34,826 nt of DNA from a virus (taxonomy: Duplodnaviria > Heunggongvirae > Uroviricota > Caudoviricetes): IMG/VR virus record IMGVR_UViG_2877251553_000002, one strand, 5' to 3'. Below, one piece after another: positions 12,923 through 34,826 of the stretch (position 1 is the stretch's first letter; each line of letters begins with the position of its first letter). A program made the position numbers and the translations under genes. The notes beneath the pieces were generated by a model that had not been told where the DNA came from, did no database searches, and saw only the letters and a list, made by a program, of their open reading frames with translations.

Positions 12923-14938
12923 CCTGTTACCCCGCTGGAATAAACCGACACAAGCGCCGAATTCGTGATACGCCGACGTGCGTCATCGGTAATACCCTTC
13001 ACATTGTCCGACGTTGTGGTGACATTCAGTGTCCCGATATGCGTGGTTTCCGTTACGGTGGACTGCGATACAGGCGCAGGATGGAGCGACCGTATGGCCA
13101 TTGCCGCACCCGGATAAGGCAGGTTCGCCAGCACCCGCGGAATATAGTTGCGGGTCTCCTCCGGAGCAGCAGCCAGTCCCTTACGCTGAACATTTCCCTC
13201 TCCACAGTTATATGCCGCCAGAGCCTTAGCCAGATCGCCATGAAAAAAACGTATCAGGCCACCAAGTTTTCTCGCGGCGGCATCAGCGGCTTTTTCGGGA
13301 TCAAAGGCATCGTTCCCCCTCAGACCAAATTCACTGGCCGTCTTCGGCATGAACTGAAACAGTCCCATCGCACCAGCAGGTGAGACGGCAAACTGATTAC
13401 CACGGGATTCGGTGATCGCAACGCTGCGCAGCAGTCCGGGCGGCAGGTTATATTTTTCCTCCAGTTGAGACAGTTTCGGTTGCAGCCAGCCTAACAGGGC
13501 TTCCCCGGTCTTCGTCGGTCGCTGGCGGTTTTGCATGGCATTACCGAGTTTTTCCTGCGTCGCACGCATACCCTGTAGCCAGGATTCACCGAAGGCTGCT
13601 TCCCTCCCGGTTGCCTGAGAAGCCTGAGTATCCAGCATGCCCTGCTGCCATACTGTGGGTGATTGTGCCCGGGTGATGTTGCCAGGCTTTTCTCCGGCAT
13701 CCAGTTTTGTCTGATACGTCTCCATCTCTTTCTTATTGAAAAAGAAAGTCCCGTCTGAAGCCCAGAAAAAACCATGTGAATCCAGCCAGTCCTTATTTTC
13801 CCTGCCAACAATGGATGTCAGTAATCCGTCAACAACCGGGTAAAGCGCCGTTATCGCAAAAAGAAGGCCTCCGGGGCCACTGAGGGCTTTTGTCAGCCCC
13901 CGCACCCATGACGCCACTTTCAGCCCGATCAGCGTAATAATGACATTCTGCCAGCCCCCAGTTCTCCGGCAGCCTTATTCGCTAGGGAGGCCACTGACTC
14001 AACGTCATTCAGAAATGTGGTGATAAACCTGTTCACTTCCTCCGGATGTTGCTGCATCCAGTCACCGAGTGTCTCCAGCCAGTGGCTGAGCTTCAGCGCG
14101 TACGGCATCAACGCGGTGCTAATCGTCATCCCGATGCCGGACCAGGTCTGATCGAGCTCAACAAGCTCTTTTCGTAGCTTACGGGCCAGCGCTGTACGCC
14201 CCGGCGTAACCTGCGAACGGGAAGTAAATTCGTCCACATCTTTCAGCGCATGACCGGAGCCAAGAAACTGCTGTCCGGCATAACTGAAGCCCAGCGCGTT
14301 GCCGTAGGCAGTTTGTTCGGACTTTGTCAGTCGCGGAAAAATAACCGCCAGCTTGCGCATGATGGCTTCAGTGCTGTCAGTATTTAAATCAACACTAATG
14401 CCCGCCCTGGCTGCAACCTGAAACAAATCCTGTAACACAGGATCAAAGGACCTTCCGGCTCTGAAGGCCGCTTTTGCATTTGCAAGCCGGGAAAATGCCC
14501 CAGACATTTCCCCTTCATCAACATTATTTGCCCGCGCAGCCCGTAACCATCCGTCCAGATTTCTGGCCTTCATGCCAAAAGCATCGGATTCCACGGACAG
14601 ACGGTTCAGATCACGGGCAAAACCTGTTACCAGGTTCTTCAGCCCCCCAGCGTCAGACTGACACCCGCAAGAGCCAGAATCTCGCTACGGATTCCTGAAA
14701 AAAAACGGGACGCCCGTTTCCCGGCATCTTCCATTCGACGGGCCGTTTTATCAGCATCTTTTCCGGTTTTTTCCAGTGATTCACTGGTTTTCTTCTGTCC
14801 CTGACTGAATGTGTCAGCGACACCTTCCATCACCGTCGTGAGCCGGTTAAGGGCAGCATGTACTGCCTGTTCCCCGGCAGTAAAGTCCCTGTCATCAATC
14901 CCGAGGGACAGAACAAGCTCATCAAGTACCTGCGCCAT
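12919..14938 (-). pseudogene. tail tape measure protein with C-terminal lytic transglycosylase (SLT) domain, split over three frames
   Basis: ORFs 14639-14938, 13929-14594 and 12919-13917 are consecutive in different frames; the last has an SLT-like signature (ESRGNQFAVSPAGAMGLFQFMP...AAYNCGEGNV). Confidence 0.55.
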
Positions 14939-15290
14939 TTCTGTTCTCCTGTATCACCTGTTCGTTATGGGCATCCACATGAATTATTTCCAGCAGATCC
15001 CATAAGTCCTGCACACCAAGGACAGAATCCAGTTCAGCTTTTGAAGCCTTACCGGAGGAGATAACGGTCGCAATGGTACGGGGAACATTAACGTAATCCA
15101 CCACCCCGAACGGTCTGTCGGGGTCGAGATAACGCGGGGGATATCTAGCTGACGACGGTAGCGAAAAAATCCACATGCAGCTTAAAGACCTCCGCACGCA
15201 GATTAAGACGGGTAATGATTTCTTCAATATCCTCTTCAACAAGCGGTCTCCGGATGCTGCGTTTTTTCGGATCGGGAACAAACTGCACAC
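14922..15290 (-). CDS. ORF overlapping the 3' end of the tail chaperone gene in the +1 frame (possible frameshift extension)
   Basis: Protein-like acidic sequence (...PFGVVDYVNVPRTIATVISSGKASKAELDSVLGVQDLWDLLEIIH...) spanning the chaperone-tape measure gap; no convincing own start signal. Confidence 0.3.
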   Translation of the reverse strand: MCSLFPIRKNAASGDRLLKRILKKSLPVLICVRRSLSCMWIFSLPSSARYPPRYLDPDRPFGVVDYVNVPRTIATVISSGKASKAELDSVLGVQDLWDLLEIIHVDAHNEQVIQENRNGAGT

Positions 15291-15549
15291 AGTCCATCAT
15301 TTCATCCATCAACGGACGCGCCTCATCAGGCGGAATTTTCGATAATGCTTTCAGCCCTTCAAGGGCAAGCGCAGCCATCCCCAGACTACGAACATCATCC
15401 GGTAACTCCACGCCACCACGCCCCATTGCCATAATGGCACGCATCGCCCACCATTCCGCCTGTGAGGCAGACATTTCGGTAAGATGAAATACCTTGCCCT
15501 TATCCCGTCCCTGACCTTCAATAGTGATAAATTTCTCTTTACGGGCCAT
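15145..15549 (-). CDS. tail assembly chaperone
   Basis: 134-aa helical acidic protein between tube and tape measure genes, the conserved chaperone position; ends with a T-rich heptamer (GAT TTT TTC). Confidence 0.5.
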   Translation of the reverse strand: MARKEKFITIEGQGRDKGKVFHLTEMSASQAEWWAMRAIMAMGRGGVELPDDVRSLGMAALALEGLKALSKIPPDEARPLMDEMMDCVQFVPDPKKRSIRRPLVEEDIEEIITRLNLRAEVFKLHVDFFATVVS

Positions 15550-15887
15550 CAGTTAAAAACCTCCGGAGTAATGGTTTCCCACTCAATAACCGCCTGCCCT
15601 GGCTGCAACGTACGAGCTGCATCAGGCAGCGCTTTCCATTGTTTGAGTACGCCATTCACGCAGGTATATTTACGGCCAATCGCCGGAAGCAGGACGACAG
15701 CGTTACAACGGAATACAGCCCGACTGGCCCGGATGTGGTTGACCAGGTATCAAAAATATCCCGGCTGGGGGAATCCGGCATGATATGAAACGTCTGGATA
15801 ATGTTGCTGTACACAAATCCCGCGGACAGTTTGGTAATGCTGCCAACTTACTGATTTAGTGTATGATGGTGATTTTAAGGTGCTTGC

Positions 15888-16163
15888 GTGGCTTCCATTT
15901 CCATCAGATGTCCTTCCTGCTCCGCTACTGAAGGCGTGGTGCGTAACGGCAAAAGCACTGCCGGACATCAGCGCTATCTCTGCTCTCATTGCCGTAAAAC
16001 ATGGCAACTACAGTTCACTTACACCGCCTCTCAGCCCGGTACGCACCAGAAAATCATTGATATGGCCATGAATGGCGTCGGATGTCGCGCCAGTGCACGC
16101 ATTATGGGCGTTGACCTCAACACGGTTTTCCGTCACTTAAAAAACTCAGGCCGCAGTCGGTAA
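15888..16163 (+). CDS. insA: IS1 InsA
   Basis: 91-aa ORF, two substitutions relative to the copy at 4898-5173. Confidence 0.85.
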
Positions 16164-16189
16164 CCTCGCGCATACAACCGGGCAGTGAT

Positions 16190-16585
16190 GTGATTGTCTG
16201 CGCTGAAATGGACGAACAGTGGGGCTACGTCGGTGCTAAATCACGTCAGCGCTGGCTGTTTTACGCGTATGACAGGATACGGAGGACGGTTGTGGCGCAC
16301 GTCTTCGGTGAACGCACTCTGGCCACACTGGAGCGTCTTCTGAGCCTGCTGTCGGCCTTTGAGGTCGTGGTATGGATGACGGATGGCTGGCCGCTGTATG
16401 AATCACGCCTGAAGGGAAAGCTGCACGTTATCAGCAAGCGTTACACTCAGCGCATTGAGCGACATAATCTGAATCTGAGACAACATCTGGCAAGGCTGGG
16501 ACGGAAGTCACTGTCGTTCTCAAAATCGGTGGAGCTGCATGACAAGGTCATCGGGCATTATCTGAACATAAAACACTATCAGTAA
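16190..16585 (+). CDS. insB: IS1 InsB (N-terminal region carries a TGG to TGA change relative to copy 1)
   Basis: 131-aa ORF matching the C-terminal 131 aa of InsB; the upstream in-frame segment has a stop at codon 11. Confidence 0.7.
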
Positions 16586-17949
16586 GTTGGAGTCATTACC
16601 GACAGTTTACCGTCAATACCGCGGGCAGTTTCCGCCAGTACCAGTGGATCGGTGCCATAAACGTTATCTGTTGCAAATCCCTGAAGTCGTACGCCGGAGG
16701 GATACAGATTATTCACTGTCAGCGTGATAATGGCATCCGCCGCAGTGATGGTGTTGTTGTTACCCGACATTTACTGGACCTCCGTGGATGCAATAACAAG
16801 TTTCTGGATACTACCGCCGTCACAGTACCAGAGCGTACAGGACGGACTGCTACGGGTTGCCCGCAAAGAGGGAAGCATATCGCCGATATACAGGTAATAG
16901 CCGGTGGCAAACAACGTTGAAGAAACATCTGCCTCCACAACATTGTTAATCTGTTTCTTCTGCGCCTCCGTCAGTGTCACCCCTTCACGGATCCCTCCCC
17001 AGCGTTTGTACTGCTGGATAACGTCACTCATTGACGCTGCAACCAGCGCCCGCCCTTCATTGTTGTAGGGGACCGTCTGGTTTGACTTGAATAATGCGAT
17101 CACCGCCCCTGCAAACTGGCATTCAGCCAGATTTGCCCGCAGAAACTGTCCAGCCATTTAAAATCACCGGTAATAGTGCCATCCGCCCAGTAATCTTCCA
17201 CCACACTGTTTTCCGCATATTTTCCGTAGAAATTGTAACCTGCGGCGATCAGCGCATCATAATCGCTGCCACTGGTAACATCAGCGGCCAGCCCCTCATA
17301 CTCGCGGAACTTGAATGATACACGCCCCTCTGGTCGGATAAAATCAAGGCACGCTGCATACCCCAGTACCGCTGCAGCCCGGTTACCATCAGTCGCGAAA
17401 ACAGGTACAACAGAGCTGTAGTTATTGACAGCAATTATCTGGTAAGCGATGTGTTCAGTACTGCCTTTTACTCTGGCGTTGCCGCTGGTTGTCCATGCCA
17501 CATAAAAGTAACGCTTGCCCTGCCCGTTTGCCCATGCAGAAAACGCCAGGTGTTGCTCGTCAGTGACCTCAGATACCGTGGAAAAACCCGCCCATTGCTG
17601 GGAAGCGGCCTTAATGGCTGCCATTGTGTCAGGGACATCAGATACAGGCGCGCCCCGGGATATCACCGCACCGGTGTTACTGGTCATCTTCAGGAGTTCT
17701 GCTGCCGATCCACTGCCGAACGTTATCGTGGTACTCCCGGGTTTCGCCCCGGCGACAGTAATGACAAAAGCATTCTGTGTGGTATCGAATACCACTGTAG
17801 CCACTGCTGCGGTCAGCGCTGTCTGTAGTGCCGTTGCAGCAGCGGCGAAGCTGGCGACACCGTTAAAATTCACTTCAATGCTGACGCTTTTCCCGTTAAT
17901 ACTCAGCATCAGCGTAAGCGTGCAGCAAGAACCGTATTGACGGGATGTG

Positions 17950-19487
17950 TTATTCAGTCGGCAGTGCTACGCGCCAGGGGAGCAGTTCGCCGACCCGGTT
18001 TATCGGCCAGTCGGCTATGACGTCAAGTACATAGCGGAGGTAGCTTTCTGGCTCCACTCCGTTCAGTTTGCACGTCCCGATCAGGCTGTACAGCAGCGCT
18101 CCCCGCTCTCCTCCATGATCCGAACCGAAGAACAGGTAGTTTTTGCGGCCCAGACTGACCATCCGCAACGCATTTTCAGCGATGTTATTGTCCGCCTCAG
18201 CCCAGCCATCATCTGCATAGTACGTCAGCGCCGGCCACTGGTTCAGGGCGTATGCGAACGCTTTCGCCAGTTCTGAGTGTCGCGACAGGGTTTTCATCTT
18301 TTCACGCAGCCAGCTTTCCAGGGATTTCAGCAGCGGTTTCGTTTTCAACTGACGTTCGGCAAGGCGCTGCTCCGCCGTCATTCCCCTTATCTCTGCCTCG
18401 ATGGCGTACAGTTCGCCGATCCGTTTCAGCGCTTCCTCCGTCAGGGCTGACGGGGTGCGAACGTGCACATCGTGGATTTTACGGCGGGCGTGAGCCCAAC
18501 AGGCGGCTTCCGTTATCCGGCCATCCCGGTACAGCTCGTTGAACCCGGCGTATGCATCCGCCTGCAGTACACCACTGAACCCCGCAAGATGGGTCTGCGG
18601 ATGGATGCCTTTTCTGTCCGGGCTGTAAGCGAACCACACCGCCGGCGCCAGCGTTGACCCGGCGTTACGGTCGTCACGAACGTAGGTCCATAACCGCCCG
18701 GTCTTCGTTTTCTTATTGCCTGGCAACAGCACCGGGACAGGCGTGTCATCGCATGGAGCTTACCGTCAGTCAGCACATAGTCCTGAAGCGCTTCTTCCAG
18801 CGGTGACAGTAGCCGGCAGCATGCATCCACCCAGCCCGACAGCAGTGAACGACTCAGCTCCACGCCCTGGCGGCCGTACATTTCAGACTGGCGGTACAGC
18901 GGGGTGTGCTCTGCATACTTTGAGATCAGCACGCGGGCCAGCAGCCCCGGTCCTGCGATACCCCGCTCGATGGGCCGTGAAGGCGCGGGGGCCTGCACGA
19001 TGGCATTGCACTGAGTACAGGCATGCTTTTCACGTACAGTCCGGATAACCCGGAAGACGCTGCGCATCAACTCCAGCTGTTCGGCGGCATCCTCACCCGG
19101 ATAGCTCAGTGAGCCTCCACATTCCGGGCAGCATGACGCTGCCGGCAGCAGCCGTTTTTCATCGCGGGGGAGTGATTCGGGGAACGGTTTGCGGGTGCGG
19201 GTTTGACGCAGCGGGCGCTGCACGGCCGGGTCGTCAACCCGACCGGTAAGGGTATCACTTTCTTTCTGAAGTGCCTTCAGGTCAGCTTCCATCTGTGCGA
19301 TACGACGGGAGACTTTTTCGGAGCGGCTGCCGAAGTTCATCCGGCGCAGCTTATCCAGCTGTGCCTGCAGATGGTCTATTTCGCGTTCACGCTCGTTCAG
19401 CTTTTCCAGCAGGGCACGGTTCAGCGCCTCCTGTTCGGCAAGGAGACGTTTCAGTGCATTGATATCGTCAGGAAGTGAGCTGCTCAT
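17950..19487 (-). pseudogene. IS66-family transposase TnpC, frameshifted
   Basis: ORFs 18513-19487 and 17950-18732 match the intact copy-3 TnpC; 1-bp deletion near 18750 (GTCATCGCATGG versus GTCATCAGCATGG). Confidence 0.8.
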
Positions 19488-19535
19488 ACCGGGTATATTA
19501 CCAGGCTCATTCAGCGTCGACCAGGATAAAGAGGC

Positions 19536-19883
19536 TTACAACATAGTCAGGGACGTAAGCAGTCTTTTAGGCTGCCGCCAGTCGATACCTTCAAGGAGCA
19601 TCGCCAGCTGTGCCGGTGTGAGGAACACTTTGCCATCCCGGGCTGACGGCCAGGCGAAGCGGCCGCGCTCCAGCCGTTTGGTCAGCAGACACAGTCCATC
19701 GCCGGTAGACCAGAGGAGCTTTACCTGACTGCCATTACGCCCACGGAAGATAAAAACGTGACCTGACATCGGAGCGTCTTTCAGCGTCGTCTGCACCTTT
19801 GCCGCCAGGCCGTTGAAGCCATTTCTCATATCGGTGATACCGGCAACCAGCCAAATTTTGGTCCCGGAAGGTAACGGGATCAT
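19536..19883 (-). CDS. IS66-family TnpB (orf2)
   Basis: 115-aa ORF, one substitution relative to the other copies. Confidence 0.85.
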   Translation of the reverse strand: MIPLPSGTKIWLVAGITDMRNGFNGLAAKVQTTLKDAPMSGHVFIFRGRNGSQVKLLWSTGDGLCLLTKRLERGRFAWPSARDGKVFLTPAQLAMLLEGIDWRQPKRLLTSLTML

Positions 19884-20281
19884 CGCTTCAGTTCCTGTAT
19901 CAGCAGAGTCAGGAGCTTTTCGCTGACATTGCCATTGAAGCGGAGCGTCCCGTGCCGGAACGTTACCTCACAGCTGATACTGAGGGTTTCCGGATCCTCT
20001 GCGAGCGATTCTGGCTGTTCGGCAGCTGCATCGAGAGTCACAGGAAGTAGCTGGGGGCTCTCTGAAGAAGGTAATAGCAGCTTTCCCTCGCGCCATTGTT
20101 GTCGCCATTTGAACAACAGATTGGCGTTAATGCCATTTTCAAGAGCAAGTTTTGAGATGGATATCCCGGGTTCACAGGAGGCAGCAACGAGCTGCTGTTT
20201 AAATTCGGGAGGATAATTAGGGCAGCCTTTTCGCCTGCCGGGATTCACATTTTTCTGCATATCTGACACTTTGGTTCCCAC
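19880..20281 (-). CDS. IS66-family TnpA (orf1)
   Basis: 133-aa ORF MGTKVSDMQKNV...; true start may be the internal Met at 20260. Confidence 0.8.
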   Translation of the reverse strand: MGTKVSDMQKNVNPGRRKGCPNYPPEFKQQLVAASCEPGISISKLALENGINANLLFKWRQQWREGKLLLPSSESPQLLPVTLDAAAEQPESLAEDPETLSISCEVTFRHGTLRFNGNVSEKLLTLLIQELKR

Positions 20282-20681
20282 TACTTATTTGGTGGACACC
20301 ACTTTGTCTAATTCGTCAGATTCTGACCAGACGGTTCAGGCTGTACGCTTACGCATCAGCGTGCCGGAAAGTTTTTGTAGCTGTTCAACAGTCGCGCCCT
20401 TAAACGAACCGCTACGTAACCAGGCCGCCGATGGGGCAGGACTGAAACGGGAAAACAACAATTGCCCCGGCGTCCTGGTGGCATTTTTGAAGCCCTGGAA
20501 ATAAAGCTGAGCGCGTGCGTACTCATCGGATAATGCACCAAAATACGCGGCCACATCATCCGGAGAGGAAAACGGAACCACAGTGCCGACCGGAAGTAAC
20601 GGATTACTGGTCAACAGCAGGCCGTTAAGATCGACGGCATTACCCGCCACAGCCAGCACACCGGGATTTATCTGTACATCT

Positions 20682-21107
20682 TTACTGAGTGGAATTGGCA
20701 TTATCAGCCTCCGTTGTCCGGGTGATCACGTTGTCAAAAAACATCAGGGAAGTTGTGACCACAGGGTTAATCTGCATCTGAATATCAAGCGTCCAGCGCG
20801 GTTCATACTGTTGCTGACCGTTGGGGAATGTGGTGTTAAAGGGCTCTGAGCAATACAGCGGGGAAATCAGCCCACCGCCCTGCCGGAAAAGCCGTACGGA
20901 AAATTCAGACCGGAAAAGCGTTGCCAGCACCTGAGCGTTATCTGCCGCGTGAGGGCCGTAGAAATCAAGCTGGCAACGCCATTTTGTGGTACGGGTGATA
21001 TGCTGAGAGCCCTCACCAGCCTGCGCTGGCGCAGAATATGCCACTACCGCAGTGGATAATCCGGTAACATCAATGCCCGTCATGGTGATGAAATTCCCCT
21101 GAGGCAT
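20682..21107 (-). CDS. hypothetical phage structural protein upstream of sheath
   Basis: 141-aa ORF; start of sheath gene overlaps its 3' end. Confidence 0.35.
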   Translation of the reverse strand: MPQGNFITMTGIDVTGLSTAVVAYSAPAQAGEGSQHITRTTKWRCQLDFYGPHAADNAQVLATLFRSEFSVRLFRQGGGLISPLYCSEPFNTTFPNGQQQYEPRWTLDIQMQINPVVTTSLMFFDNVITRTTEADNANSTQ

Positions 21108-21213
21108 CGGGACCTGGTTCTGCTGCGTTCGTTCAATCCCGGCATCAGAAAAAAGCCCCGGTGATAATCACCGAGGGCCTGATAAAGAGCGCTTTCCGTA
21201 ACGGAGAGGGTCA

Positions 21214-21575
21214 CACCTGAAGGCATACAATAACCCTCGTCCAGTCAGGCCAGATTTCCAGTACCTCAATCACCAGCCACGTTTCATCGCCAATAACAAA
21301 TTTATCGCCTCCCTGTTGCCGGGCACGGTTAAGCCCGCACCAGTTACCATCGGTATACAATGTGGCGAAAACTCCCTGCTGGTTAAGATTATCAAGATGA
21401 CGTAAATCAGCCTGGGTGACAGCCTGCTTTTGCCCCTGACGGAAACCGGATCTTCATACTCAGGTACGCGGGAATAATCTGCCTGCTGTGTACTCCCGCG
21501 GGAACGATAAACCAGCGCGTCTGTAAAGGGATTTACCCGACGTACTGCGCCGGAAACAATACCGTGAAAGTTCAT
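21214..21575 (-). pseudogene. hypothetical phage structural protein, frameshifted
   Basis: ORF 21270-21575 shifts near the C4/G4 tract at 21433-21436 into a frame that stays open to a stop at 21211-21213. Confidence 0.35.
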
Positions 21576-21826
21576 TTTTTGCCCCCGTCTACAGAATAAT
21601 CAACGCTGTCCATCATATGTCCGGTTTCAATAAGCGGGTTGTTAAAACCCTTTTGCCGGGCAGTGGATGCAGCGTTGGACGGACTTTCCCAGTCGCGAAC
21701 AGACATCTGCAACTGCCCTTTGATATGTTCTCCCATACACACCAGAGCGGTCGCAGTATCAAAATCATTCGCCCGTAATAAGGTCGCCATTTTTTCGCCC
21801 CATTCGGGACTTTTATGTTCGATCAT
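21572..21826 (-). CDS. hypothetical phage head-tail joining protein
   Basis: 84-aa ORF translationally coupled to neighbours. Confidence 0.35.
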   Translation of the reverse strand: MIEHKSPEWGEKMATLLRANDFDTATALVCMGEHIKGQLQMSVRDWESPSNAASTARQKGFNNPLIETGHMMDSVDYSVDGGKK

Positions 21827-22155
21827 CTTACGGAAGAACGGACGGGGGGAATGGTGACCGTGTGCTCAGGAATAACCACATCCTGAACAAAATTCCCTTT
21901 ACCGGCTTTGACAAAGCGGTGCCCGGTTTCTCCCGTTTTTTCGTTATAGCGAAAGTGGAGCGTCTGCTCACGGGCGGGTATGACCGCTCTTCCACCAAAC
22001 TCCTGAACTGCGGCAATATAAGCCACTGACGTACCGTCAGGGTAAGTTGCTCCCTCAAGAAAACCCACTTTGAGTTTTTTACCCAATGAAAGGTTCGCGG
22101 CAACCTGTTTCAGCTTCTGCCGGAACTGTTTGCCACCTGTGACTTTATTTACCAT
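21823..22155 (-). CDS. hypothetical phage head-tail/neck protein
   Basis: 110-aa ORF in a run of overlapping minus-strand ORFs. Confidence 0.4.
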
Positions 22156-22604
22156 CGACGCCCCCTCCCGTATCCCCGGTAATAATGCCCCGGATATCGC
22201 GAAGGTGCCCCCCCGGAATGATACTGCATTGAGCGGTATGGCGCTGTCGCCTGCCAGTAGTCAGCACCCCAGGGGGTCTGGAGATACCACCACGACGCAT
22301 CATTACTGCCGCTATTATCCACCGATACCGATACAGAACCTTCCGACGCACTGGTGATACGCCCCACCAGACCAGCCTGCCCGTCTCTCCCGTTTCCCAG
22401 CCCCCGCAATGCGCACAGATGCGCAACCAGCAGGAACAGAAGCTGTTCCCGCTCCTTCAGGTCGGTAACCGGACTGTCGTCCGTGTTATCCAGGTACAAC
22501 GCGGTCGCCCGGTTAAACACCGCCGTCAGTAGCTCCGGTGTCACCGTGGAAAACTCCGGGTACAGACTGACAAACATCCGACAGTCAAACGTCACCGTAC
22601 CCAT
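22149..22604 (-). CDS. hypothetical phage head-tail connector-type protein
   Basis: 151-aa ORF upstream of the neck/tail genes. Confidence 0.4.
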
Positions 22605-22609
22605 AGCGT

Positions 22610-23677
<1,068 letters not shown>

Positions 23678-23686
23678 ATGGCGACA

Positions 23687-23902
23687 TTATTCACCTCTCG
23701 CAGCCTTACGCTTATCTTCTCTTATTTTGAAATACAGATTCGTCAGATAAGTCAGAAGCCCCAGAAGCAGACTTCCCAGCACACCAATCGCAGCCCACTG
23801 TGATGGACTGACCTGATCCAACCACTGCAAAAACCAGTAGCCGGCACTGCCGGCGGAGGTGCCGTAGGCAATGCCCGTTGAAATTTTGTCCATGGATTTC
23901 AT
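23687..23902 (-). CDS. class II holin (phage 21 S / EssD-like)
   Basis: 71-aa protein [30 protein letters not shown]... with two hydrophobic segments and charged C-terminus, closely resembling lambdoid S21-type holins. Confidence 0.8.
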
Positions 23903-24194
23903 AGCCTCACCTCCGCAAATAACGGATGGCGTAGTTTTACACTGAGAAATGAAAGGGATTTGAAAAGAAAAAAACGCAAAAGCGGGCGAAACGATATATA
24001 CAGTAAGGAAAGCACTCTATCCAACAAACCACCCACAGTTAATCGGAATAAAAGCAGAGTGCTTATGAATGATCGCACGCCCGAAGGTTAGTATTTCTGC
24101 ACAGCAATTTTGCAAAAAAAGGCGATCATTCATAACTTAAACGTCTTTCAGTCACTCCGGGATTTCCCATCATCGCAGACTGAAAGACTCTGAC

Positions 24195-24269
<75 letters not shown>

Positions 24270-24272
24270 ATA

Positions 24273-24348
<76 letters not shown>

Positions 24349-24350
24349 GC

Positions 24351-24427
24351 TGGCCCACCACCGAGGACTCGAACCTCGCACCGTCAACTTAGAAGGTTGA
24401 TGCTCTATCCGGATGAGCTAGTGGTGG
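24351..24427 (-). tRNA. tRNA-Arg (anticodon UCU)
   Basis: Reverse complement CCACCACTAGCTCATCCGGATAGAGCATCAACCTTCTAAGTTGACGGTGCGAGGTTCGAGTCCTCGGTGGTGGGCCA; 7-bp acceptor stem, anticodon loop CTTCTAA. Confidence 0.75.
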
Positions 24428-24428
24428 T

Positions 24429-24505
24429 TGGTGGCCCTTGCTGGACTTGAACCAGCGACCTGGCGATTATGAGTCGCTCGCTCTGACCAACTGAGCTAAA
24501 GGGCC
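24429..24505 (-). tRNA. tRNA with CAU anticodon (tRNA-Ile2-like, or Met)
   Basis: Reverse complement GGCCCTTTAGCTCAGTTGGTCAGAGCGAGCGACTCATAATCGCCAGGTCGCTGGTTCAAGTCCAGCAAGGGCCACCA; resembles ileX-type tRNA. Confidence 0.8.
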
Positions 24506-24585
24506 GGAGGCAGAATAATAACCATATGTCATCACATCTGCAAACTCATCTGACCACCAGCACGTTTAACGTCCTGTGCCGTTTT

Positions 24586-25886
<1,301 letters not shown>

Positions 25887-26224
25887 CTGATAAAAGCGCC
25901 CTGTACTGGTTAGCAATAGCAAATTTACTACCAGCTGCTCTGATTTCAAGAAAGCTGTACACCTCCCTTATGCCTATATTTTTAACCGGAACACCACCAA
26001 AGTATTCACTTATGATTTTCAACCTCTGGTTGTGTCTTTTCATGGTGTTTGTGCTTAATTGTCTACGCTCTATTTCATTTCTGAAATTTAATATCAGCTC
26101 GCAGAATAATGTTACGCTATTACCTTTTATTCTATCCAGTAAGCTTATATGTTGCGTGGATAATAATTCCATATTTGCCGCAATAGCCTCATTAACTGCA
26201 ATTCTTTTGTCTCTTCCGATTCCA
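25887..26224 (-). pseudogene. lambda-family integrase, internal N-proximal fragment
   Basis: Reads ...GIGRDKRIAVNEAIAANMELL...NSVTL...AIANQYRALLS up to the IS911 junction, colinear with lambda Int residues ~36-160; 5' end replaced by an IS1 terminus at 26225. Confidence 0.8.
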
Positions 26225-26352
26225 GGTGATGACTCCAACTTACTGATAGTGTTTTATGTTCAGATAATGCCCGATGACCTTGTCATGCAGCTCCACCGAT
26301 TTTGAGAACGACAGTGACTTCCGTCCCAGCCTTGCCAGATGTTGTCTCAGAG
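26225..26352 (-). mobile_element. IS1 terminal fragment (~128 bp)
   Basis: GGTGATGACTCCAACTTACTGATAGTGTTTTATGTTCAGATAATGCCCGATGAC... matches the IS1 end at 4461-4590, then is cut by the ISEc8-like terminus at 26353. Confidence 0.8.
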
Positions 26353-26388
26353 TAAGCGTGCAGCAAGAACCGTATTGACGGGGATGTG

Positions 26389-27927
26389 TTATTCAGTCGG
26401 CAGTGCTACGCGCCAGGGGAGCAGTTCGCCGACCCGGTTTATCGGCCAGTCGGCTATGACGTCAAGTACATAGCGGAGGTAGCTTTCTGGCTCCACTCCG
26501 TTCAGTTTGCACGTCCCGATCAGGCTGTACAGCAGCGCTCCCCGCTCTCCTCCATGATCCGAACCGAAGAACAGGTAGTTTTTGCGGCCCAGACTGACCA
26601 TCCGCAACGCATTTTCAGCGATGTTATTGTCCGCCTCAGCCCAGCCATCATCTGCATAGTACGTCAGCGCCGGCCACTGGTTCAGGGCGTATGCGAACGC
26701 TTTCGCCAGTTCTGAGTGTCGCGACAGGGTTTTCATCTTTTCACGCAGCCAGCTTTCCAGGGATTTCAGCAGCGGTTTCGTTTTCAACTGACGTTCGGCA
26801 AGGCGCTGCTCCGCCGTCATTCCCCTTATCTCTGCCTCGATGGCGTACAGTTCGCCGATCCGTTTCAGCGCTTCCTCCGTCAGGGCTGACGGGGTGCGAA
26901 CGTGCACATCGTGGATTTTACGGCGGGCGTGAGCCCAACAGGCGGCTTCCGTTATCCGGCCATCCCGGTACAGCTCGTTGAACCCGGCGTATGCATCCGC
27001 CTGCAGTACACCACTGAACCCCGCAAGATGGGTCTGCGGATGGATGCCTTTTCTGTCCGGGCTGTAAGCGAACCACACCGCCGGCGCCAGCGTTGACCCG
27101 GCGTTACGGTCGTCACGAACGTAGGTCCATAACCGCCCGGTCTTCGTTTTCTTATTGCCTGGCAACAGCACCGGGACAGGCGTGTCATCAGCATGGAGCT
27201 TACCGTCAGTCAGCACATAGTCCTGAAGCGCTTCTTCCAGCGGTGACAGTAGCCGGCAGCATGCATCCACCCAGCCCGACAGCAGTGAACGACTCAGCTC
27301 CACGCCCTGGCGGCCGTACATTTCAGACTGGCGGTACAGCGGGGTGTGCTCTGCATACTTTGAGATCAGCACGCGGGCCAGCAGCCCCGGTCCTGCGATA
27401 CCCCGCTCGATGGGCCGTGAAGGCGCGGGGGCCTGCACGATGGCATCGCACTGAGTACAGGCATGCTTTTCACGTACAGTCCGGATAACCCGGAAGACGC
27501 TGCGCATCAACTCCAGCTGTTCGGCGGCATCCTCACCCGGATAGCTCAGTGAGCCTCCACATTCCGGGCAGCATGACGCTGCCGGCAGCAGCCGTTTTTC
27601 ATCGCGGGGGAGTGATTCGGGGAACGGTTTGCGGGTGCGGGTTTGACGCAGCGGGCGCTGCACGGCCGGGTCGTCAACCCGACCGGTAAGGGTATCACTT
27701 TCTTTCTGAAGTGCCTTCAGGTCAGCTTCCATCTGTGCGATACGACGGGAGACTTTTTCGGAGCGGCTGCCGAAGTTCATCCGGCGCAGCTTATCCAGCT
27801 GTGCCTGCAGATGGTCTATTTCGCGTTCACGCTCGTTCAGCTTTTCCAGCAGGGCACGGTTCAGCGCCTCCTGTTCGGCAAGGAGACGTTTCAGTGCATT
27901 GATATCGTCAGGAAGTGAGCTGCTCAT
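26389..27927 (-). CDS. IS66-family transposase TnpC, intact (512 aa)
   Basis: Single uninterrupted ORF; the only intact TnpC among the three copies. Confidence 0.85.
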
Positions 27928-27975
27928 ACCGGGTATATTACCAGGCTCATTCAGCGTCGACCAGGATAAAGAGGC

Positions 27976-28323
27976 TTACAACATAGTCAGGGACGTAAGC
28001 AGTCTTTTAGGCTGCCGCCAGTCGATACCTTCAAGGAGCATCGCCAGCTGTGCCGGTGTGAGGAACACTTTGCCATCCCGGGCTGACGGCCAGGCGAAGC
28101 GGCCGCGCTCCAGCCGTTTGGTCAGCAGACACAGTCCATCGCCGGTAGACCAGAGGAGCTTTACCTGACTGCCATTACGCCCACGGAAGATAAAAACGTG
28201 ACCTGACATCGGATCGTCTTTCAGCGTCGTCTGCACCTTTGCCGCCAGGCCGTTGAAGCCATTTCTCATATCGGTGATACCGGCAACCAGCCAAATTTTG
28301 GTCCCGGAAGGTAACGGGATCAT
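27976..28323 (-). CDS. IS66-family TnpB (orf2)
   Basis: 115-aa ORF identical to copy 1. Confidence 0.85.
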   Translation of the reverse strand: MIPLPSGTKIWLVAGITDMRNGFNGLAAKVQTTLKDDPMSGHVFIFRGRNGSQVKLLWSTGDGLCLLTKRLERGRFAWPSARDGKVFLTPAQLAMLLEGIDWRQPKRLLTSLTML

Positions 28324-28721
28324 CGCTTCAGTTCCTGTATCAGCAGAGTCAGGAGCTTTTCGCTGACATTGCCATTGAAGCGGAGCGTCCCGTGCCGGAA
28401 CGTTACCTCACAGCTGATACTGAGGGTTTCCGGATCCTCTGCGAGCGATTCTGGCTGTTCGGCAGCTGCATCGAGAGTCACAGGAAGTAGCTGGGGGCTA
28501 TCTGAAGAAGGTAATAGCAGCTTTCCCTCGCGCCATTGTTGTCGCCATTTGAACAACAGATTGGCGTTAATGCCATTTTCAAGAGCAAGTTTTGAGATGG
28601 ATATCCCGGGTTCACAGGAGGCAGCAACGAGCTGCTGTTTAAATTCGGGAGGATAATTAGGGCAGCCTTTTCGCCTGCCGGGATTCACATTTTTCTGCAT
28701 ATCTGACACTTTGGTTCCCAC
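28320..28721 (-). CDS. IS66-family TnpA (orf1)
   Basis: 133-aa ORF; alternative start at 28700. Confidence 0.8.
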   Translation of the reverse strand: MGTKVSDMQKNVNPGRRKGCPNYPPEFKQQLVAASCEPGISISKLALENGINANLLFKWRQQWREGKLLLPSSDSPQLLPVTLDAAAEQPESLAEDPETLSISCEVTFRHGTLRFNGNVSEKLLTLLIQELKR

Positions 28722-28818
28722 TACTTATTTGGTGGACACCACTTTGTCTAATTCGTCAGATTCTGACCAGACGGTTCAGGCTGTACGCTTACGTTTTTAT
28801 AATCCGGCCATGACATTT

Positions 28819-29178
28819 TTACAACATTGTCAGTGCGTTAAGGCGGGATGTTTTTGGCTGACGCCAGTCCAGCTTATCGAGGAGCATTGCCAGTTGCGAG
28901 CGGGTAATGGATACCTTGCCGTCACGCACAGCAGGCCAGATAAACTGGCCTTCCTCCAGGCGTCTGGTGAACAGGCACAGACCATCAGCATCAGCCCACA
29001 GGATTTTAATCATGTCACCCCGTCGGCCACGGAAGATGAACAGGTGACCGGAGAAGGGATTATCATTCAGCACATGCTGTACCTGTTCACCCAGCCCGTT
29101 GAAAGACTTACGCATATCGGTTATCCCAGCAACGAGCCAGATGCGGGTGCCTGACGGGAGTGAGATCATCGTCCCCAC
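28819..29178 (-). CDS. IS66-family TnpB-like protein (divergent)
   Basis: MGTMISLPSGTRIWLVAGITDMRKSFNGL..., roughly 60 percent identical by eye to the ISEc8-like TnpB. Confidence 0.75.
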   Translation of the reverse strand: MGTMISLPSGTRIWLVAGITDMRKSFNGLGEQVQHVLNDNPFSGHLFIFRGRRGDMIKILWADADGLCLFTRRLEEGQFIWPAVRDGKVSITRSQLAMLLDKLDWRQPKTSRLNALTML

Positions 29179-29597
29179 CCGGTCAGTTCACGGATCAACA
29201 CTGTGAGCAGCTCTGGTGAAGGATTTTCCAGCGTCATGTTACCGTGACGGAACTCCACCTTGCAGGAGCTGGCACTAACTGTAGTCTGAGTAGATAAAGA
29301 CGGAGTAAGAGCAGCCACCGGTTCTTTCGGCTCATCCGGCGTTATCTCCACAGGTAATAATTCAACGCCAGTGTCAGAAGAGGTTGTTACCGGAAGACGC
29401 CGCGATATGCGCCCTTCGTTCTGCCAGAGCCTGAGCCATTTGAACAGCAGGTTATCATTGATATCGTGTTCCCGGGCAATACGGGCAACAGAGGCTCCTG
29501 GTTGTGAAGCCAGTTTAACCATTTGAAGTTTAAACTCATTTGAAAATGATCTGCGGGTTCTGCAGATAATGCTTTCTGTTCCATAACAGGTGTCCAC
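29166..29597 (-). CDS. IS66-family TnpA-like protein (divergent); start uncertain
   Basis: Contains the conserved ...DNLLFKWLRLWQNEG... segment of IS66 orf1 proteins. Confidence 0.65.
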   Translation of the reverse strand: MDTCYGTESIICRTRRSFSNEFKLQMVKLASQPGASVARIAREHDINDNLLFKWLRLWQNEGRISRRLPVTTSSDTGVELLPVEITPDEPKEPVAALTPSLSTQTTVSASSCKVEFRHGNMTLENPSPELLTVLIRELTGWGR

Positions 29598-29670
29598 TAG
29601 TTGAAAAGGTGGGCACCTACGTTACCAATACAGGCTTAATGGCTACATACGGCGGTCAGTTTACGCTTAC

Positions 29671-29944
29671 CAAAATACGCTGTTGCTTTTTTTAATATAT
29701 ATCGCTCAAGGCGAGCTTCATTTAACGCCTTACGCAGTTGCAGAATTTCAGATTCCAGTTCAGCCACCGTGCGGGAACCAGGAGTACCGAGCCCTTTTCT
29801 GGCGGCGGTAACCCATTGTCCTAAAGTGCCTTCAGGAAGGGATAATCGGGAAGCGCCTTCACTGATCGAAAGTTGATTTTCAAGAACCGTTCTGACAGCT
29901 TCGGCTTTGAACTCTTTAGAGTAACGTTGGTTTTTTCTGCTCAT
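29671..29944 (-). pseudogene. IS3-family OrfA, 3' truncated
   Basis: First ~91 codons of an IS600-like OrfA; ORF tail at 29636-29670 is IS66-derived. Confidence 0.6.
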
Positions 29945-30008
29945 TATTAGCTCCTTCTGATGCCATTCTATTTCAGGAAGGAGTGTCCGTTAAACTCAGG
30001 CTACCTCA
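29671..30008 (-). mobile_element. IS3-family element 5' fragment (IS600-like)
   Basis: Left end TGAGGTAGCCTGAGTTTAACGGACAC (as reverse complement at 29983-30008) and OrfA N-terminus MSRKNQRYSKEFKAEAVRTVLENQLSISEGASRL..., cut at 29670 by the IS66-family terminus. Confidence 0.6.
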
Positions 30009-30067
30009 GCCTGAGGGCAGGTGTAAAACAATAATCAAGCATGGGGTTCATATCCATAGCTCCATTT

Positions 30068-30613
30068 TTATTTTAAGGAAAGCAACTGCTCTACGGTCAT
30101 GTTTTTAATTGCGCCCCGGTTTACAAGAGTCCAGCCCTGTTTTTCCAGATAAAACCGGAAAGTCTCCAGGGTACAGACCAGTGCGCCATCAGGAACGGTT
30201 TCGGTGAATTCGACATTGCCGAATTTGTCGAAGTGAACAACCAGAGTGCGACCATCACCCGGAATCATCTTGTCAGCAGGTGGGGTGTTATTCTGGCGCA
30301 GTTCGGCCTCCATGCGGTCGAACTCAGCAATGTAGGCTTCCTTGAATGTGGCGGCTTTTTTGCCCGTGAAGCCCATCACCAGGAAAACGAAGCCGTTTTT
30401 GGTGATTTGGTAGGCGTTATAAGAATTGCCGCGGTGTTCGAATTTAACCCGCGAAAAGTTGCTGGTTAAAAATAGTTCAGAACATTCGAGGGATTCTATT
30501 TTTTGAACAACATGGTGATGCTGCTTGCCAAAAAACTCAGCAATCGAAATAGAAGTAGTGACGGCGCGACCATTTTCGATGGTTACGTCAGGGTGAGAAA
30601 GGGTAGTAGCCAT
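30068..30613 (-). CDS. rha: phage regulatory protein Rha (antirepressor-like)
   Basis: Start ATG at 30613 with GAGGA 7 nt upstream; Rha-family signature ...SISIAEFFGKQHHHVVQKIESL...YQITKNGFVFLVMGFTGKKAATFKEAYIAEFDRMEAEL... Confidence 0.75.
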   Translation of the reverse strand: MATTLSHPDVTIENGRAVTTSISIAEFFGKQHHHVVQKIESLECSELFLTSNFSRVKFEHRGNSYNAYQITKNGFVFLVMGFTGKKAATFKEAYIAEFDRMEAELRQNNTPPADKMIPGDGRTLVVHFDKFGNVEFTETVPDGALVCTLETFRFYLEKQGWTLVNRGAIKNMTVEQLLSLK

Positions 30614-30695
30614 AATGACATCCTCAAGTGATAAGTTAATTAACTCACCAGCAGAGGTGCTAATCTCATGGGTGGTGAGACGCACAGGGTTAGCA

Positions 30696-30908
30696 CTACC
30701 GGTCACTCGAGAACCCGGCCAGCCTTGCGGCTGCCCCGCACGCCTCACCATAATTTGAATGTGGCTGTGCATTACGCATAAAAAAAACCGCTTCAGCGCG
30801 GTTATGCGCTCGAGTAACTTTCGGGGTGCTAATCCCGGCGCCCGTTTTATGAGGTGCAGGTGCATTATAATTCCACCCGTTCTGGTTTTCAATAGCTACA
30901 TTCAACAT
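30696..30908 (-). CDS. hypothetical 70-aa ORF with good ribosome site but an intrinsic terminator inside it
   Basis: AGGAAAGAG upstream of ATG at 30908; hairpin plus T8 at 30780-30803 lies mid-ORF, so coding status is doubtful. Confidence 0.2.
   Translation of the reverse strand: MLNVAIENQNGWNYNAPAPHKTGAGISTPKVTRAHNRAEAVFFMRNAQPHSNYGEACGAAARLAGFSSDR
30780..30803 (-). terminator. rho-independent terminator, minus strand, upstream of rha
   Basis: ACCGC-GCTGAA-GCGGT hairpin followed by 8 T on the minus strand, embedded in a longer palindrome CGCATAA...TTATGCG. Confidence 0.5.
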
Positions 30909-30930
30909 TTTCTCTTTCCTTTCATCACCG

Positions 30931-31085
30931 AAGTGAATTTTGTGATGCGGTGCCTAGTGCCTCCAGGTGACGTTAACCAGTTAACAATTACAGTCGGCTT
31001 TCCCACCCAAACCAATAAGGACTAACATGACTTTTAACTGTGCCGCGTGCGCTTAGCCGCATTCACCGCATCACAAAATTCACTT
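30931..31085. repeat. pair of 22-bp perfect inverted repeats (AAGTGAATTTTGTGATGCGGTG) separated by 111 bp
   Basis: Arm 1 at 30931-30952, reverse-complement arm at 31064-31085; spacer contains GTTAACCAGTTAAC. Confidence 0.8.
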
Positions 31086-31140
31086 TAAAAAGGGCGGACA
31101 TCAGCCAGCAATTAAACCGATGCCGCCAACTGGTACTTCA
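31086..31140 (-). ncRNA. DicF-like small RNA with intrinsic terminator
   Basis: Minus-strand sequence ...AGUUGGCGGCAUCGGUUUAAUUGCUGGCUGAUGUCCGCCCUUUUU resembles the DicF sRNA of the Qin dicB operon (GGCGG...CCGCC stem, U-run) and lies in the equivalent position downstream of the dicA-like gene; ends approximate. Confidence 0.45.
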
Positions 31141-31329
31141 CACAGCAATGTCGTTATTTACAACCGGAAGCGCACTCCCACCATTTAAATTTCACAGACA
31201 AGACCGACTCTTTATGAATACCGGAAATGCGCCTTCGTGTTGTGCCCGGTTTTATTTCACCACCTCCGGGCTTTGGTGGCCTCGGCTATACCTCTACAGC
31301 GAGAATATTGAATTAATCCAATAAATGGA

Positions 31330-31482
31330 TTAGCTGGTATTTTTGGCAAGCCAGCGACGTGCGCCAGCTTCGGTTTTAAACGTTTTGCTTTTGGTATACG
31401 TCATGGCGGTGAATGTGCCGTCCTGATTGGGAAACACGCCACACACTAGGGATTCGTTGTTGCCAAGATCGATAGTATCCAT
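31330..31482 (-). CDS. small protein (50 aa), YdfA-like
   Basis: ATG with GAGG 8 nt upstream; MDTIDLGNNESLVCGVFPNQDGTFTAMTYTKSKTFKTEAGARRWLAKNTS; first ORF downstream of the repressor gene. Confidence 0.5.
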   Translation of the reverse strand: MDTIDLGNNESLVCGVFPNQDGTFTAMTYTKSKTFKTEAGARRWLAKNTS

Positions 31483-31682
31483 GCTGACCTCATTTCCCTT
31501 AACGCCGGGTAGCGGAACTGTTTGCTGAGAACACCGTGCGGTGTCTTGATGAATGAAATTTAGAATAACCTAAGGTGTTGGGTTAAGATTTTATGTAGAA
31601 AAACCTAAGTTTTTTTGATGTAAAAAACACAAGTGTTTGAAAGTTTGTGCTTTTTATTACAGGGTGTGGAGAAAAAAGGGGA

Positions 31683-32089
31683 TTATTTGTTTGCGCTTCT
31701 TTTGCGAGCTTTGAGTAGTTCTTCAAAAAGTTTGTTGAAATTTTCAACTCGAGCACGCATCTCTGACAACAGGGCCTTTTGCTCTGACTCAGGCAGTGCG
31801 TCGAACAGTTGAAGTAACTCTTTTTGATCTTCTGTCAGAATGGCTGGCTGATTATCCGGGATCGGTTCGCCTGGTTGTTTATCTTCATCCCAAAAAGAAG
31901 CCAAGTCGGTGAGCACTGAAGCGCTTGGCTCAGTGCGAATAATCTTTTCCCCGCCGGCTGTGTTTCATCTCTTTCCCATTGAGAAATTGTTACGTGAGCC
32001 ACTTTGACCAGCTTACCTAATGCGGCCTGAGACAGTTTTAATTTTTTACGCCTATGTAAGAGGCGAGCACCGAAGGTTTCGTTTTTCAT
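31683..32089 (-). pseudogene. dicA: DicA-like HTH (XRE/cI-type) repressor, frameshifted
   Basis: ORFs 31835-32089 (HTH: ...LSQAALGKLVKVAHVTISQWERDETQPAGKRLFALSQALQCSPTWLLFG) and 31683-31916 (...LPESEQKALLSEMRARVENFNKLFEELLKARKR) overlap in different frames and together resemble DicA. Confidence 0.7.
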
Positions 32090-32165
32090 ATTAGGGAATT
32101 CTAATTTTTCTTGACTTAGGTTTCTCTACGAGCTAGTTTCCTTAGGAAAATCTAAGGAGCTCGAT
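32090..32165. promoter_or_regulatory. divergent promoter/operator region between repressor and cro-like genes
   Basis: TTGACTTAGGTTTCTCT and palindrome-like CCTTAGGAAAATCTAAGG; similar CCTAAG/CTTAGG motifs recur at 31560-31640. Confidence 0.4.
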
Positions 32166-32373
32166 ATGTTGAAAATTGATGCTATAGCGTTTTTTGGCAG
32201 CAAAACAAAGCATTGCCAATGCCGCAGGAGTTAGGCTGGCAAGCATTGCTGCATGGGGGGAACTGGTTCCTGAAGGTCGCGCGATGCGCCTGCAAGAGGC
32301 ATCTGGCGGGGAACTTCAGTACGACCCAAAGTTTATGACGAATATCGTAAGGCAAAACGACCTGGGAAGGTGA
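32166..32373 (+). pseudogene. dicC: DicC-like Cro-type regulator, frameshifted
   Basis: MLKIDAIAFFGSKTK then a 1-bp insertion; the other frame continues IANAAGVRLASIAAWGELVPEGRAMRLQEASGGELQYDPK..., resembling DicC. Confidence 0.65.
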
Positions 32374-32376
32374 TTC

Positions 32377-32798
32377 ATGAAAATCAGGCATGAGCACATC
32401 GAATCAGTGCTGTTAGCCCTGGCAGCCGAAAAAGGGCAGGCGTGGGTCGCTAACGCAATTACTGAAGAATATCTGCGGCAGGGGGCGGCGAATTGCCTCT
32501 GGTACCAGGCAAGGACTGGAACAATCAGCAGAATATCTATCACCGTTGGTTGAAAGGTGAAACGAAAGCGCAAAGGGAAAAAATTCAGAAACTGATCCCT
32601 GCGGTTCTGGCAATTCTTCCGCGTGAGCTGCGTCACCGACTCTGTATCTTCGATACCCTGGAACGCCGTGCATTACTGGCGGCGCAGGAAGCGTTGAGTA
32701 CGGCAATTGATGCGCATGATGACGCAGTTCAGGCCGTTTACCGGAAAGCACATTTCAGCGGTGGTGGGTCGTCCGACGATTCTGTCGTTGTGCATTGA
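32377..32798 (+). pseudogene. YdaT-like protein, frameshifted
   Basis: MKIRHEHIESVLLALAAEKGQAWVANAITEEYLRQG.. then a frame change into ..LPLVPGKDWNNQQNIYHRWLKGETKAQREKIQKLIPAVLAILPRELRHRLCIFDTLERRALLAAQEAL... Confidence 0.65.
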
Positions 32799-32888
32799 TG
32801 TTTATGCCGAACCTCCTCTGGTTCTGTTGATTGGGGAATCACAGATTATATCCGGAGGAAGGTTCGGCACCAGACGAGGTTTCTATAT

Positions 32889-32970
32889 ATGAGCATGAAA
32901 CTAATGGCAAAAGCAATGGAAATTAAAGTGGGTAATCCATTGCGTAAGCTGGTTCTGATTAAGCTGGCTG
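32889..32970 (+). pseudogene. 5' fragment of a gene cut by IS911 (possibly replication-initiator O-like)
   Basis: MSMKLMAKAMEIKVGNPLRKLVLIKLA runs directly into the IS911 left end at 32971. Confidence 0.3.
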
Positions 32971-33042
32971 TGAAGTGGCACACTGAATTTGGCCACCTGA
33001 ACAGAGGTGATATGCTCACCTCAGAACAACACAGGTGCTCCA

Positions 33043-34826
<1,784 letters not shown>

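Follow-up and report, generated by a model that had tools for sequence, protein, structure and literature searches.

In the Qin prophage of E. coli K-12, DicA and DicC repress dicBp and play roles like those of CI and Cro (PMC10448788). In the Rac prophage, RacR represses ydaS and ydaT, which are toxic when expressed (PMC5700373, PMC5700377), and YdaT has been described as an equivalent of CII (PMC9986795, PMC5917428). We analyzed a stretch of 34,826 nucleotides from a tailed phage genome in IMG/VR (IMGVR_UViG_2877251553_000002), hereafter referred to as the window, with a focus on positions 31330 to 32798, which probably form the immunity switch of a lambdoid prophage remnant that is riddled with IS elements and resides in the Shigella-type chromosome CP026825.1. 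Positions 22493 to 34826 of the window are identical to this chromosome (locus L007), which was retrieved with a 101-aa YdaT fragment as the query. All components of the switch are members of known families, with proteins identical to RefSeq entries, and the pattern of frameshifts within it is largely of a known assembly-artefact type.

The locus is similar to Qin of K-12 (L022) in that a repressor gene of the HTH_3 family is divergently oriented relative to a gene of the P22_Cro type, with ydfA (DUF1391) located downstream of the repressor, but differs from it in that the rightward operon contains ydaT rather than ydfX/ydfW (Table 1). As in Qin, where the order is dicA-ydfA, the ydfA-like gene appears to be the first gene of a leftward transcription unit controlled by the repressor. 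The dicF RNA, which is present in Qin, was not detected in an Rfam scan of the whole window. No dicB gene was noticed in the window, although no dedicated search was made for it. The placement of ydaT after the cro-type gene, in the position of CII, is shared with RacR-YdaS-YdaT of Rac in K-12 and with YdaS/YdaT of CP-933P in O157:H7, and, as in Rac, silencing of the cro-ydaT operon by the repressor is expected (PMC5700373, PMC5700377). The difference from Rac is that the repressor and the cro gene are of the Qin type, rather than RacR and YdaS. Since a repressor and a cro gene of the Qin type are joined to a ydaT gene of the Rac type, the module, as judged from its gene families, is a mosaic, and biologically the locus is a lambdoid immunity region of the standard mosaic kind. 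The initial annotation of a DicA/DicC-type module with ydaT was thus borne out, both by the Pfam matches to HTH_3, P22_Cro and YdaT_toxin and by the identities to K-12, which amount to 62% over 131 aa for the corrected repressor and DicA, 75% for the corrected Cro and DicC and 92.4% at the DNA level for ydaT and its Rac homolog.

Table 1. Features of the immunity region and its right-hand border. Positions are those of the window; gene lengths in aa refer to the intact forms.
Feature	Position	Strand	Evidence
ydfA-like gene (DUF1391, 50 aa), intact	31330-31482	-	Pfam PF07151, E=7.9e-30; gene order as in K-12 dicA-ydfA
Two 1-bp deletions in the region upstream of ydfA: C4 to C3 after 31495, G4 to G3 after 31506	31495-31507		Alignment to comparators
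Two candidate OL-like operator sites (TTAGGN4TCTAM): 31560-31573, 31595-31608	31560-31608	-	Located between the repressor stop and ydfA
DicA-like, CI-type repressor gene (135 aa)	31683-32089	-	HTH_3, PF01381, E=7.8e-14
Three candidate OR-like operator sites: 32091-32104, 32116-32129, 32142-32155	32091-32155	+	Located in the 76-bp divergent intergenic region
DicC/Cro-like gene (75 aa)	32166-32393	+	P22_Cro, PF14549, E=3.1e-13
ydaT, CII-equivalent regulator (140 aa)	32377-32798	+	YdaT_toxin, PF06254, E=5.1e-11
HTH_36 replication-initiator-like gene, first 27 codons, truncated by IS911	32889-32969	+	Comparison with L032
IS911 copy, closing the immunity region	32970-34227	+	Self-BLAST to other IS911 pieces of the window; Pfam HTH_Tnp_1 and rve in L007

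The ydaT gene sits directly after cro, and its start overlaps the cro end. For 172 bases past the ydaT stop the window is identical to a related locus (L032), in which the uncut replication gene (174 aa) precedes a gene for a DnaB-like helicase; from position 32971, the window diverges into IS911 sequence. Past the IS911 copy, only a fragment of an integrase gene is left, while a Rha/Ash gene, the C4 and isrK RNAs, several IS elements and a myovirus-like structural region are located upstream. Cut up by insertions of IS911, IS66-family elements and IS1, the remnant is defective regardless of the state of its switch. The frameshifts had at first been seen as consistent with a prophage that can no longer be induced. 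The inference that they are the cause is not supported, since IS elements already cut up the remnant and the IS911 insertion at 32970 truncates the replication gene; non-inducibility is thus due to the IS damage and not to the frameshift lesions.

The 14-nt motif TTAGGN4TCTAM was matched five times in the window, as compared to 0.07 matches expected by chance. All five matches are confined to the two intergenic regions that flank the repressor gene, and the two on the left are inverted repeats relative to the three on the right. Judged from the enrichment of the motif, these five sites are candidate operators of the OL/OR type. The motif was not found in the Qin region of K-12, implying a different immunity specificity. 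In analogy to the systems of Qin (DicA/DicC) and Rac (RacR/YdaS/YdaT), the repressor would bind to the five sites and thereby shut off the leftward (ydfA) and the rightward (cro-ydaT) promoters; we infer both this binding and the functional state of the switch. The simpler motif CCTWAGG was also considered as an operator and rejected, as it showed no enrichment, in contrast to the 14-nt motif. The best match to the published YdaT site, TTGATTN6AATCAA, was located at 32370-32387 and contained two mismatches, which is at the level of chance. A consensus scan for sigma-70 promoters and terminators gave nothing above background; when read by eye, a possible -35 element (TTGACT, 32111-32116) and a Shine-Dalgarno sequence (AAGGAG, 32154-32159) can be seen, neither of which was called in the scan.

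We aligned the region base by base to FDAARGOS_943 (L001), the best complete match in E. coli (97.7% identity), which served as the intact reference, and recorded the presence or absence of each allele in a comparator set of 25 related loci. These include S. flexneri serotype 6 strain 64-5500 (CP026811) and S. boydii 600657 (CP049281, PacBio plus Illumina). The alignment to intact homologs, which had been proposed as a check, pinpointed four 1-bp indels within genes and two in intergenic DNA. The ORF listing and the alignment agree with the initial annotation that all three regulatory genes are frameshifted in the deposited sequence. A single frame change per gene was seen in the repressor gene and in ydaT, as had been stated, but the cro gene contains two, such that the genic indels are four in number and not three.

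The repressor gene is split into two ORFs of 84 and 77 aa in the deposited sequence, with one C missing from a C4 run after 31888 (31889-31891 being CCC). After correction, the 135-aa protein matches both WP_000787424.1 and the protein of the reference with 100% identity. The 77-aa fragment was found on a single contig in the whole public collection, namely CP026825.1 itself, and a protein look-up of the 84-aa N-terminal fragment returned no record, while exact copies of the intact protein are present on at least 1000 contigs. Since the C4 run is of full length in 25 of the 25 comparator loci, the deletion is in all likelihood an artefact of the assembly.

The cro gene as deposited stops after 22 codons from 32166. 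This is due to an inserted A at 32212, which changes AAG CTT GCC into AAG CAT TGC C and affects codon 16; the initial annotation had placed an insertion directly after codon 15 (AAG-C-ATT), which is correct with regard to the position, but the inserted base is A and not C. A second lesion, the loss of one C from a C4 run after 32324, puts the frame back. With both indels corrected, the 75-aa protein shows 100% identity to both WP_000912291.1 and the protein of the reference, and a copy of the cro-like protein with 96.5% identity has been named DicC by PGAP. Apart from the indels, no amino-acid substitutions were observed in either the repressor or Cro relative to the proteins of the reference. 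The deletion after 32324 was seen in none of the 25 comparators and is very probably an assembly artefact. The inserted A is located outside any homopolymer and is common to four assemblies: the window, its sibling record CP026823.1 (L004), and two further loci (L023 and L031; UYIT01000003.1 and CP026834.1). These assemblies belong to one coherent haplotype clade and to at least two accession series; no match to the allele was obtained in the species-representative genomes that were scanned. The position outside a homopolymer and the sharing among four assemblies make us confident that the insertion at 32212 is a genuine mutation, inherited by a small clade. Other cro lesions were identified in relatives, namely the nonsense mutation Q51* at 32317 (S. 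boydii 600657 and two others) and a G6 to G5 change at 32255. The repressor protein is invariant across the loci that carry cro lesions.

In ydaT, a G6 to G5 change at 32476-32480 has produced ORFs of 58 and 101 aa in the deposited sequence. The corrected protein of 140 aa is 97.9% identical to WP_000702036.1, which is the intact protein of the reference, and every match to the gene in E. coli is one base longer. The G5 allele is common to the window and CP026823.1, which also share two private SNPs, and the closest relatives with the inserted A in cro (L023 and L031) have G6. The exact intact protein is present on 494 contigs (827 index blocks) versus 34 contigs (40 blocks) for the G5 product, and is thus about 15 times commoner; the 58-aa and 101-aa pieces recur in dozens of contigs, and G5 and G7 alleles were also seen in short contigs of public sequencing runs, the runs with one or the other allele being SRR29762669/70, SRR315557xx-8xx and ERR3133901. 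Among the assembled loci, where the counts are biased because loci were retrieved by look-up of one allele or the other, the run is shortened in five CP0268xx accessions (G5 in CP026811, CP026823, CP026824 and CP026825; G4 in CP026842), of full length (G6) in CP026731, CP026834, CP026839 and CP026866, and likewise G6 in each of the six retrieved assemblies that belong to other series. Within the CP0267xx-CP0268xx range, which we take to be a PacBio-only series from the CDC, the split between short and full runs does not correspond to haplotype. The near-universal presence of G5 in L004-L021 was initially considered as proof of a real allele, an argument that was dropped due to ascertainment bias, as these loci had been retrieved via the frameshift products.

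The origin of the ydaT change is evenly balanced between a true slippage mutation in a sub-lineage and the same kind of artefact as in the repressor gene. The affected run is of the error class, with three of seven six-base G/C runs under-called in CP026825.1; on the other hand, CP026823.1 is otherwise clean, and an allele shared between two sister genomes makes phylogenetic sense. The occurrence of the G5 allele in a clean sibling and in public contigs means that some G/C-run deletions in the window need not be errors.

We compared the genome of the window to CP026823.1, with which it is colinear over 20.3 kb, and found 9 SNPs and 11 one-base indels, 10 of which are deletions within G/C runs in the genome of the window. 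When the counts were pooled from the comparisons to CP026823.1 and to a copy of the structural region from E. coli (L003), 19 of 145 G/C runs of at least four bases (13%) were one base short, versus 0 of 352 A/T runs (Fisher p=3e-11), and deletions outnumbered insertions by approximately 19 to 1. The fraction of shortened G/C runs increased with run length from 1/532 for runs of three bases to 5/107 (5%), 9/29 (31%), 3/7 (43%) and 2/2 (100%) for runs of four, five, six and seven bases. The pattern extends to K-12 housekeeping DNA (ybhA to galT, 7.6 kb), in which the same 111 SNPs were identified in CP026823.1 and the genome of the window. Three of four G5 runs are short in the genome of the window, breaking modB, modF and galT, while none of 20 G/C runs of at least four bases is short in CP026823.1. 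Of the three IS911 copies in the genome of the window, two have G4 in place of a G5 run that is of full length in every copy in CP026823.1 and L005, and three IS66-family copies within the window differ from each other by run-length indels. In CP026842.1, under-calling was likewise seen at the runs that were checked, those of modB and IS911, the same modB run being short. As to the two intergenic deletions, the C after 31495 is otherwise missing in CP026866.1 (L026), from the same CP0267xx-CP0268xx range, and is present in all other comparators that cover the site, while the G after 31506 is present in all comparators that cover it. We judge both to be artefacts of the assembly, the former probably representing a recurrent site-specific error.

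Taken at the level of the runs, this pattern has the signature of consensus under-calling rather than of mutation. Errors in long reads are known to pseudogenize genes (PMC12007338), and the homopolymer under-calling of long-read-only assemblies likewise yields one-base deletions that depend on run length, generate false pseudogenes, are absent from siblings and are inconsistent among copies of a repeat (PMC12007338). The present case differs from under-calling in general in that only G/C runs are affected and that at least one lesion of the region, the inserted A at 32212, is of another type.

Judged by comparison among assemblies, the genic indels are likely to be of mixed origin, with the deletions in the repressor gene and at the second site in cro being artefacts, the inserted A in cro a true mutation and the ydaT change falling either way. 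The deletions in the repressor gene, at the second cro site and at the two intergenic sites would then be consensus errors that resulted from under-calling of G/C homopolymers, and in the living strain an intact repressor would still keep the promoters on either side silent. Most likely, the strain carries an intact repressor, a dead cro gene and possibly a dead ydaT gene within a remnant crippled by IS elements. Of the claim that neither the repressor nor cro is functional, the part that concerns cro stands, the frameshift at codon 16 being genuine; the part that concerns the repressor does not, since that frameshift is seen in CP026825.1 only, is absent from the 25 related loci and is of the G/C-run error class. 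The accompanying caveat that error-prone sequencing could produce such lesions holds for no fewer than two of the four genic indels. Apparent pseudogenes at G/C runs in CP026825.1 can thus not safely be taken as biology, and any count of pseudogenes or of genome decay that is based on this record will be inflated.

Shigella genomes gather real pseudogenes, and homopolymers are hot spots for real slippage. All four frameshifts might accordingly be real, with the switch of repressor, cro and ydaT wholly dead through decay of the Shigella style. The many pseudogenes and IS elements in Shigella lineages, the visible decay of the remnant and the independent hits to cro in relatives (the inserted A, Q51* and the shortened G6 run) are consistent with such a scenario. 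We nevertheless consider it quite improbable, given that the deletions in the repressor gene and at the second cro site were found in one assembly only and that, relative to a sibling that carries the same SNPs, the differences depend on run length and consist solely of deletions in G/C runs. Moreover, run differences are also seen in housekeeping genes and vary among the copies of one IS element, and the repressor and Cro contain no amino-acid substitutions besides the indels.

The opposite scenario, in which every indel is an artefact, including the inserted A in cro and the G5 run in ydaT, and in which the switch of the strain is fully intact, would be in line with the error-prone assembly and with the error class of the ydaT change. 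It would also agree with the shortening of the ydaT run in five CP0268xx accessions independently of haplotype, with G6 in all other series in what is a biased sample, and with the rarity of the G5 product relative to intact YdaT. This scenario is very unlikely in view of the inserted A at 32212, which is not in a homopolymer and is found in four assemblies that make up one haplotype clade and derive from two or more accession series, and of CP026823.1, which has the same G5 run in ydaT and yet shows 0 of 20 under-called G/C runs relative to K-12.

It could also be envisioned that a mismatch-repair mutator strain was behind CP026825.1, such that the deletions in G/C runs are biological and very recent. 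Indel rates in homopolymers rise in mutators, and the deletions are here concentrated in runs. However, mutator spectra consist mostly of transitions, and A/T runs are affected too. In unique sequence the indels exceeded the SNPs in the comparison to CP026823.1 (8 versus 3), the changes hit 13% of the G/C runs and no A/T runs with a strong excess of deletions, the same run change occurred in different IS911 copies of one genome and the same modB run was short in CP026842.1, from the same accession range. We regard a mutator origin as highly improbable. Finally, the idea that natural, shorter paralogues or a programmed-frameshift arrangement account for the split genes deserves hardly any credence and was dropped: although the 58-aa and 101-aa pieces of YdaT are recurrent, single-base corrections restore full-length proteins of 135, 75 and 140 aa that are 98-100% identical to widespread ones, which identifies the split genes as frameshifted full-length genes, the breaks fall inside HTH domains, and neither a slippery site nor a conserved two-ORF architecture was seen.

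The cro gene is inactivated by lesions that differ from one sub-lineage to another, with conservation of the repressor, a pattern that fits the known toxicity of Cro/CII-type genes of cryptic prophages when derepressed. A broader proposal, which we consider speculative and rather unlikely, is that the rightward regulators have been knocked out repeatedly and independently in Shigella and E. coli carriers, with the repressor kept invariant, under selection to disarm potentially toxic regulators of the Cro/CII type, comparable to YdaS/YdaT of Rac, and that the G6 tracts in cro and ydaT may act as slippage-prone, possibly reversible switches. The signal of cro inactivation is partly homopolymer-based. 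Across lineages, the G-run of ydaT was observed as G4, G5 and G7 alleles.

Among relatives of the window, lesions in the cro-like and ydaT-like genes of the DicA-type switch recur in several forms. At the position equivalent to 32317 in the window, cro carries a C-to-T nonsense substitution (Q51*) in three of the related loci compared (L025, L026 and L029), each from a different assembly, among them S. boydii 600657. A G6-to-G5 shortening of the tract equivalent to 32250-32255 was found in cro in six assemblies of uncertain reliability (L006, L009, L012, L019, L020 and L021), and the repressor gene is intact in nearly all relatives with either of these cro lesions. The G tract of ydaT was recovered in four lengths among the records (G4, G5, G6 and G7), of which G4 is represented by one complete assembly (CP026842.1, L006) and G7 by one short public contig (ERR3133901, L008).

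Towards the end of cro, the sequence GTGATTCATGAAAATCAG (32370-32387) agrees with the published YdaT operator, TTGATTN6AATCAA, with two mismatches, and such matches occur across the window at chance level. OM of CP-933P has the same relative position. The switch is adjoined by a possible second regulatory unit, in which a gene for a Rha/Ash-family regulator is directly preceded by two Rfam matches, one to the C4 antisense RNA with 78.6 bits and one to isrK with 63.8 bits, an arrangement that resembles the antirepressor control unit of P1/P7 immI. Coordinates are collected in the table.

Features in the window and next to it (window coordinates unless otherwise stated)
Feature	Position	Strand	Remarks
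IS66-family element, three copies	1-2348, 17909-20353, 26347-28793		2.45 kb
IS1, two copies	4461-5228, 15833-16600
Myovirus-like structural module	8500-22955		DUF3383 sheath, DUF1073 portal, baseplate and lytic transglycosylase genes
IS911, three pieces	22958-23688, 24628-25887, 32970-34227
tRNA genes Gly-tcc, Thr-tgt, Arg-tct, Met-cat	24195-24505	minus	four prophage genes
Rha/Ash-family regulator gene	about 30068-30865		C4 and isrK directly upstream
C4 antisense RNA and isrK RNA	30668-30857	minus	Rfam matches
484-aa ORF	33372-34826		chimeric, IS911 orfB into phage integrase fragment
modB, modF, galT	14563, 17359, 20069 of L007 (CP026825.1)		just past right end of window; G5 to G4 in each

The structural module is 99.5% identical to that of an E. 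coli FDAARGOS_943 prophage, is broken up by IS1 and IS66, and contains many scattered deletions in G/C runs; the transglycosylase gene (2022 bp), for example, is distributed over two ORFs, 12919-13917 and 13929-14594. Copies of any given IS element within the window are distinguished by 1-bp indels in G/C runs and a few substitutions. The transposase of the IS66 copy at 17909-20353 is broken into ORFs of 260 and 324 amino acids, while that of the copy at 26347-28793 has 512 amino acids.

Single-base deletions of the same type were observed in the housekeeping genes beyond the window. The shortened runs in modF and galT are confined to the CP026825.1 assembly, while that in modB is shared with CP026842.1, and all three runs are G5 in the sibling CP026823.1 and in K-12. 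At 34148, a C5-to-C4 deletion, absent from the sibling assembly, helps the read-through that produces the chimeric 484-aa ORF.

The first tRNA gene of the cluster contains one additional G, at 24201, and the corresponding cluster in the E. coli relative is annotated differently, as Val, Thr, Arg and Ile.
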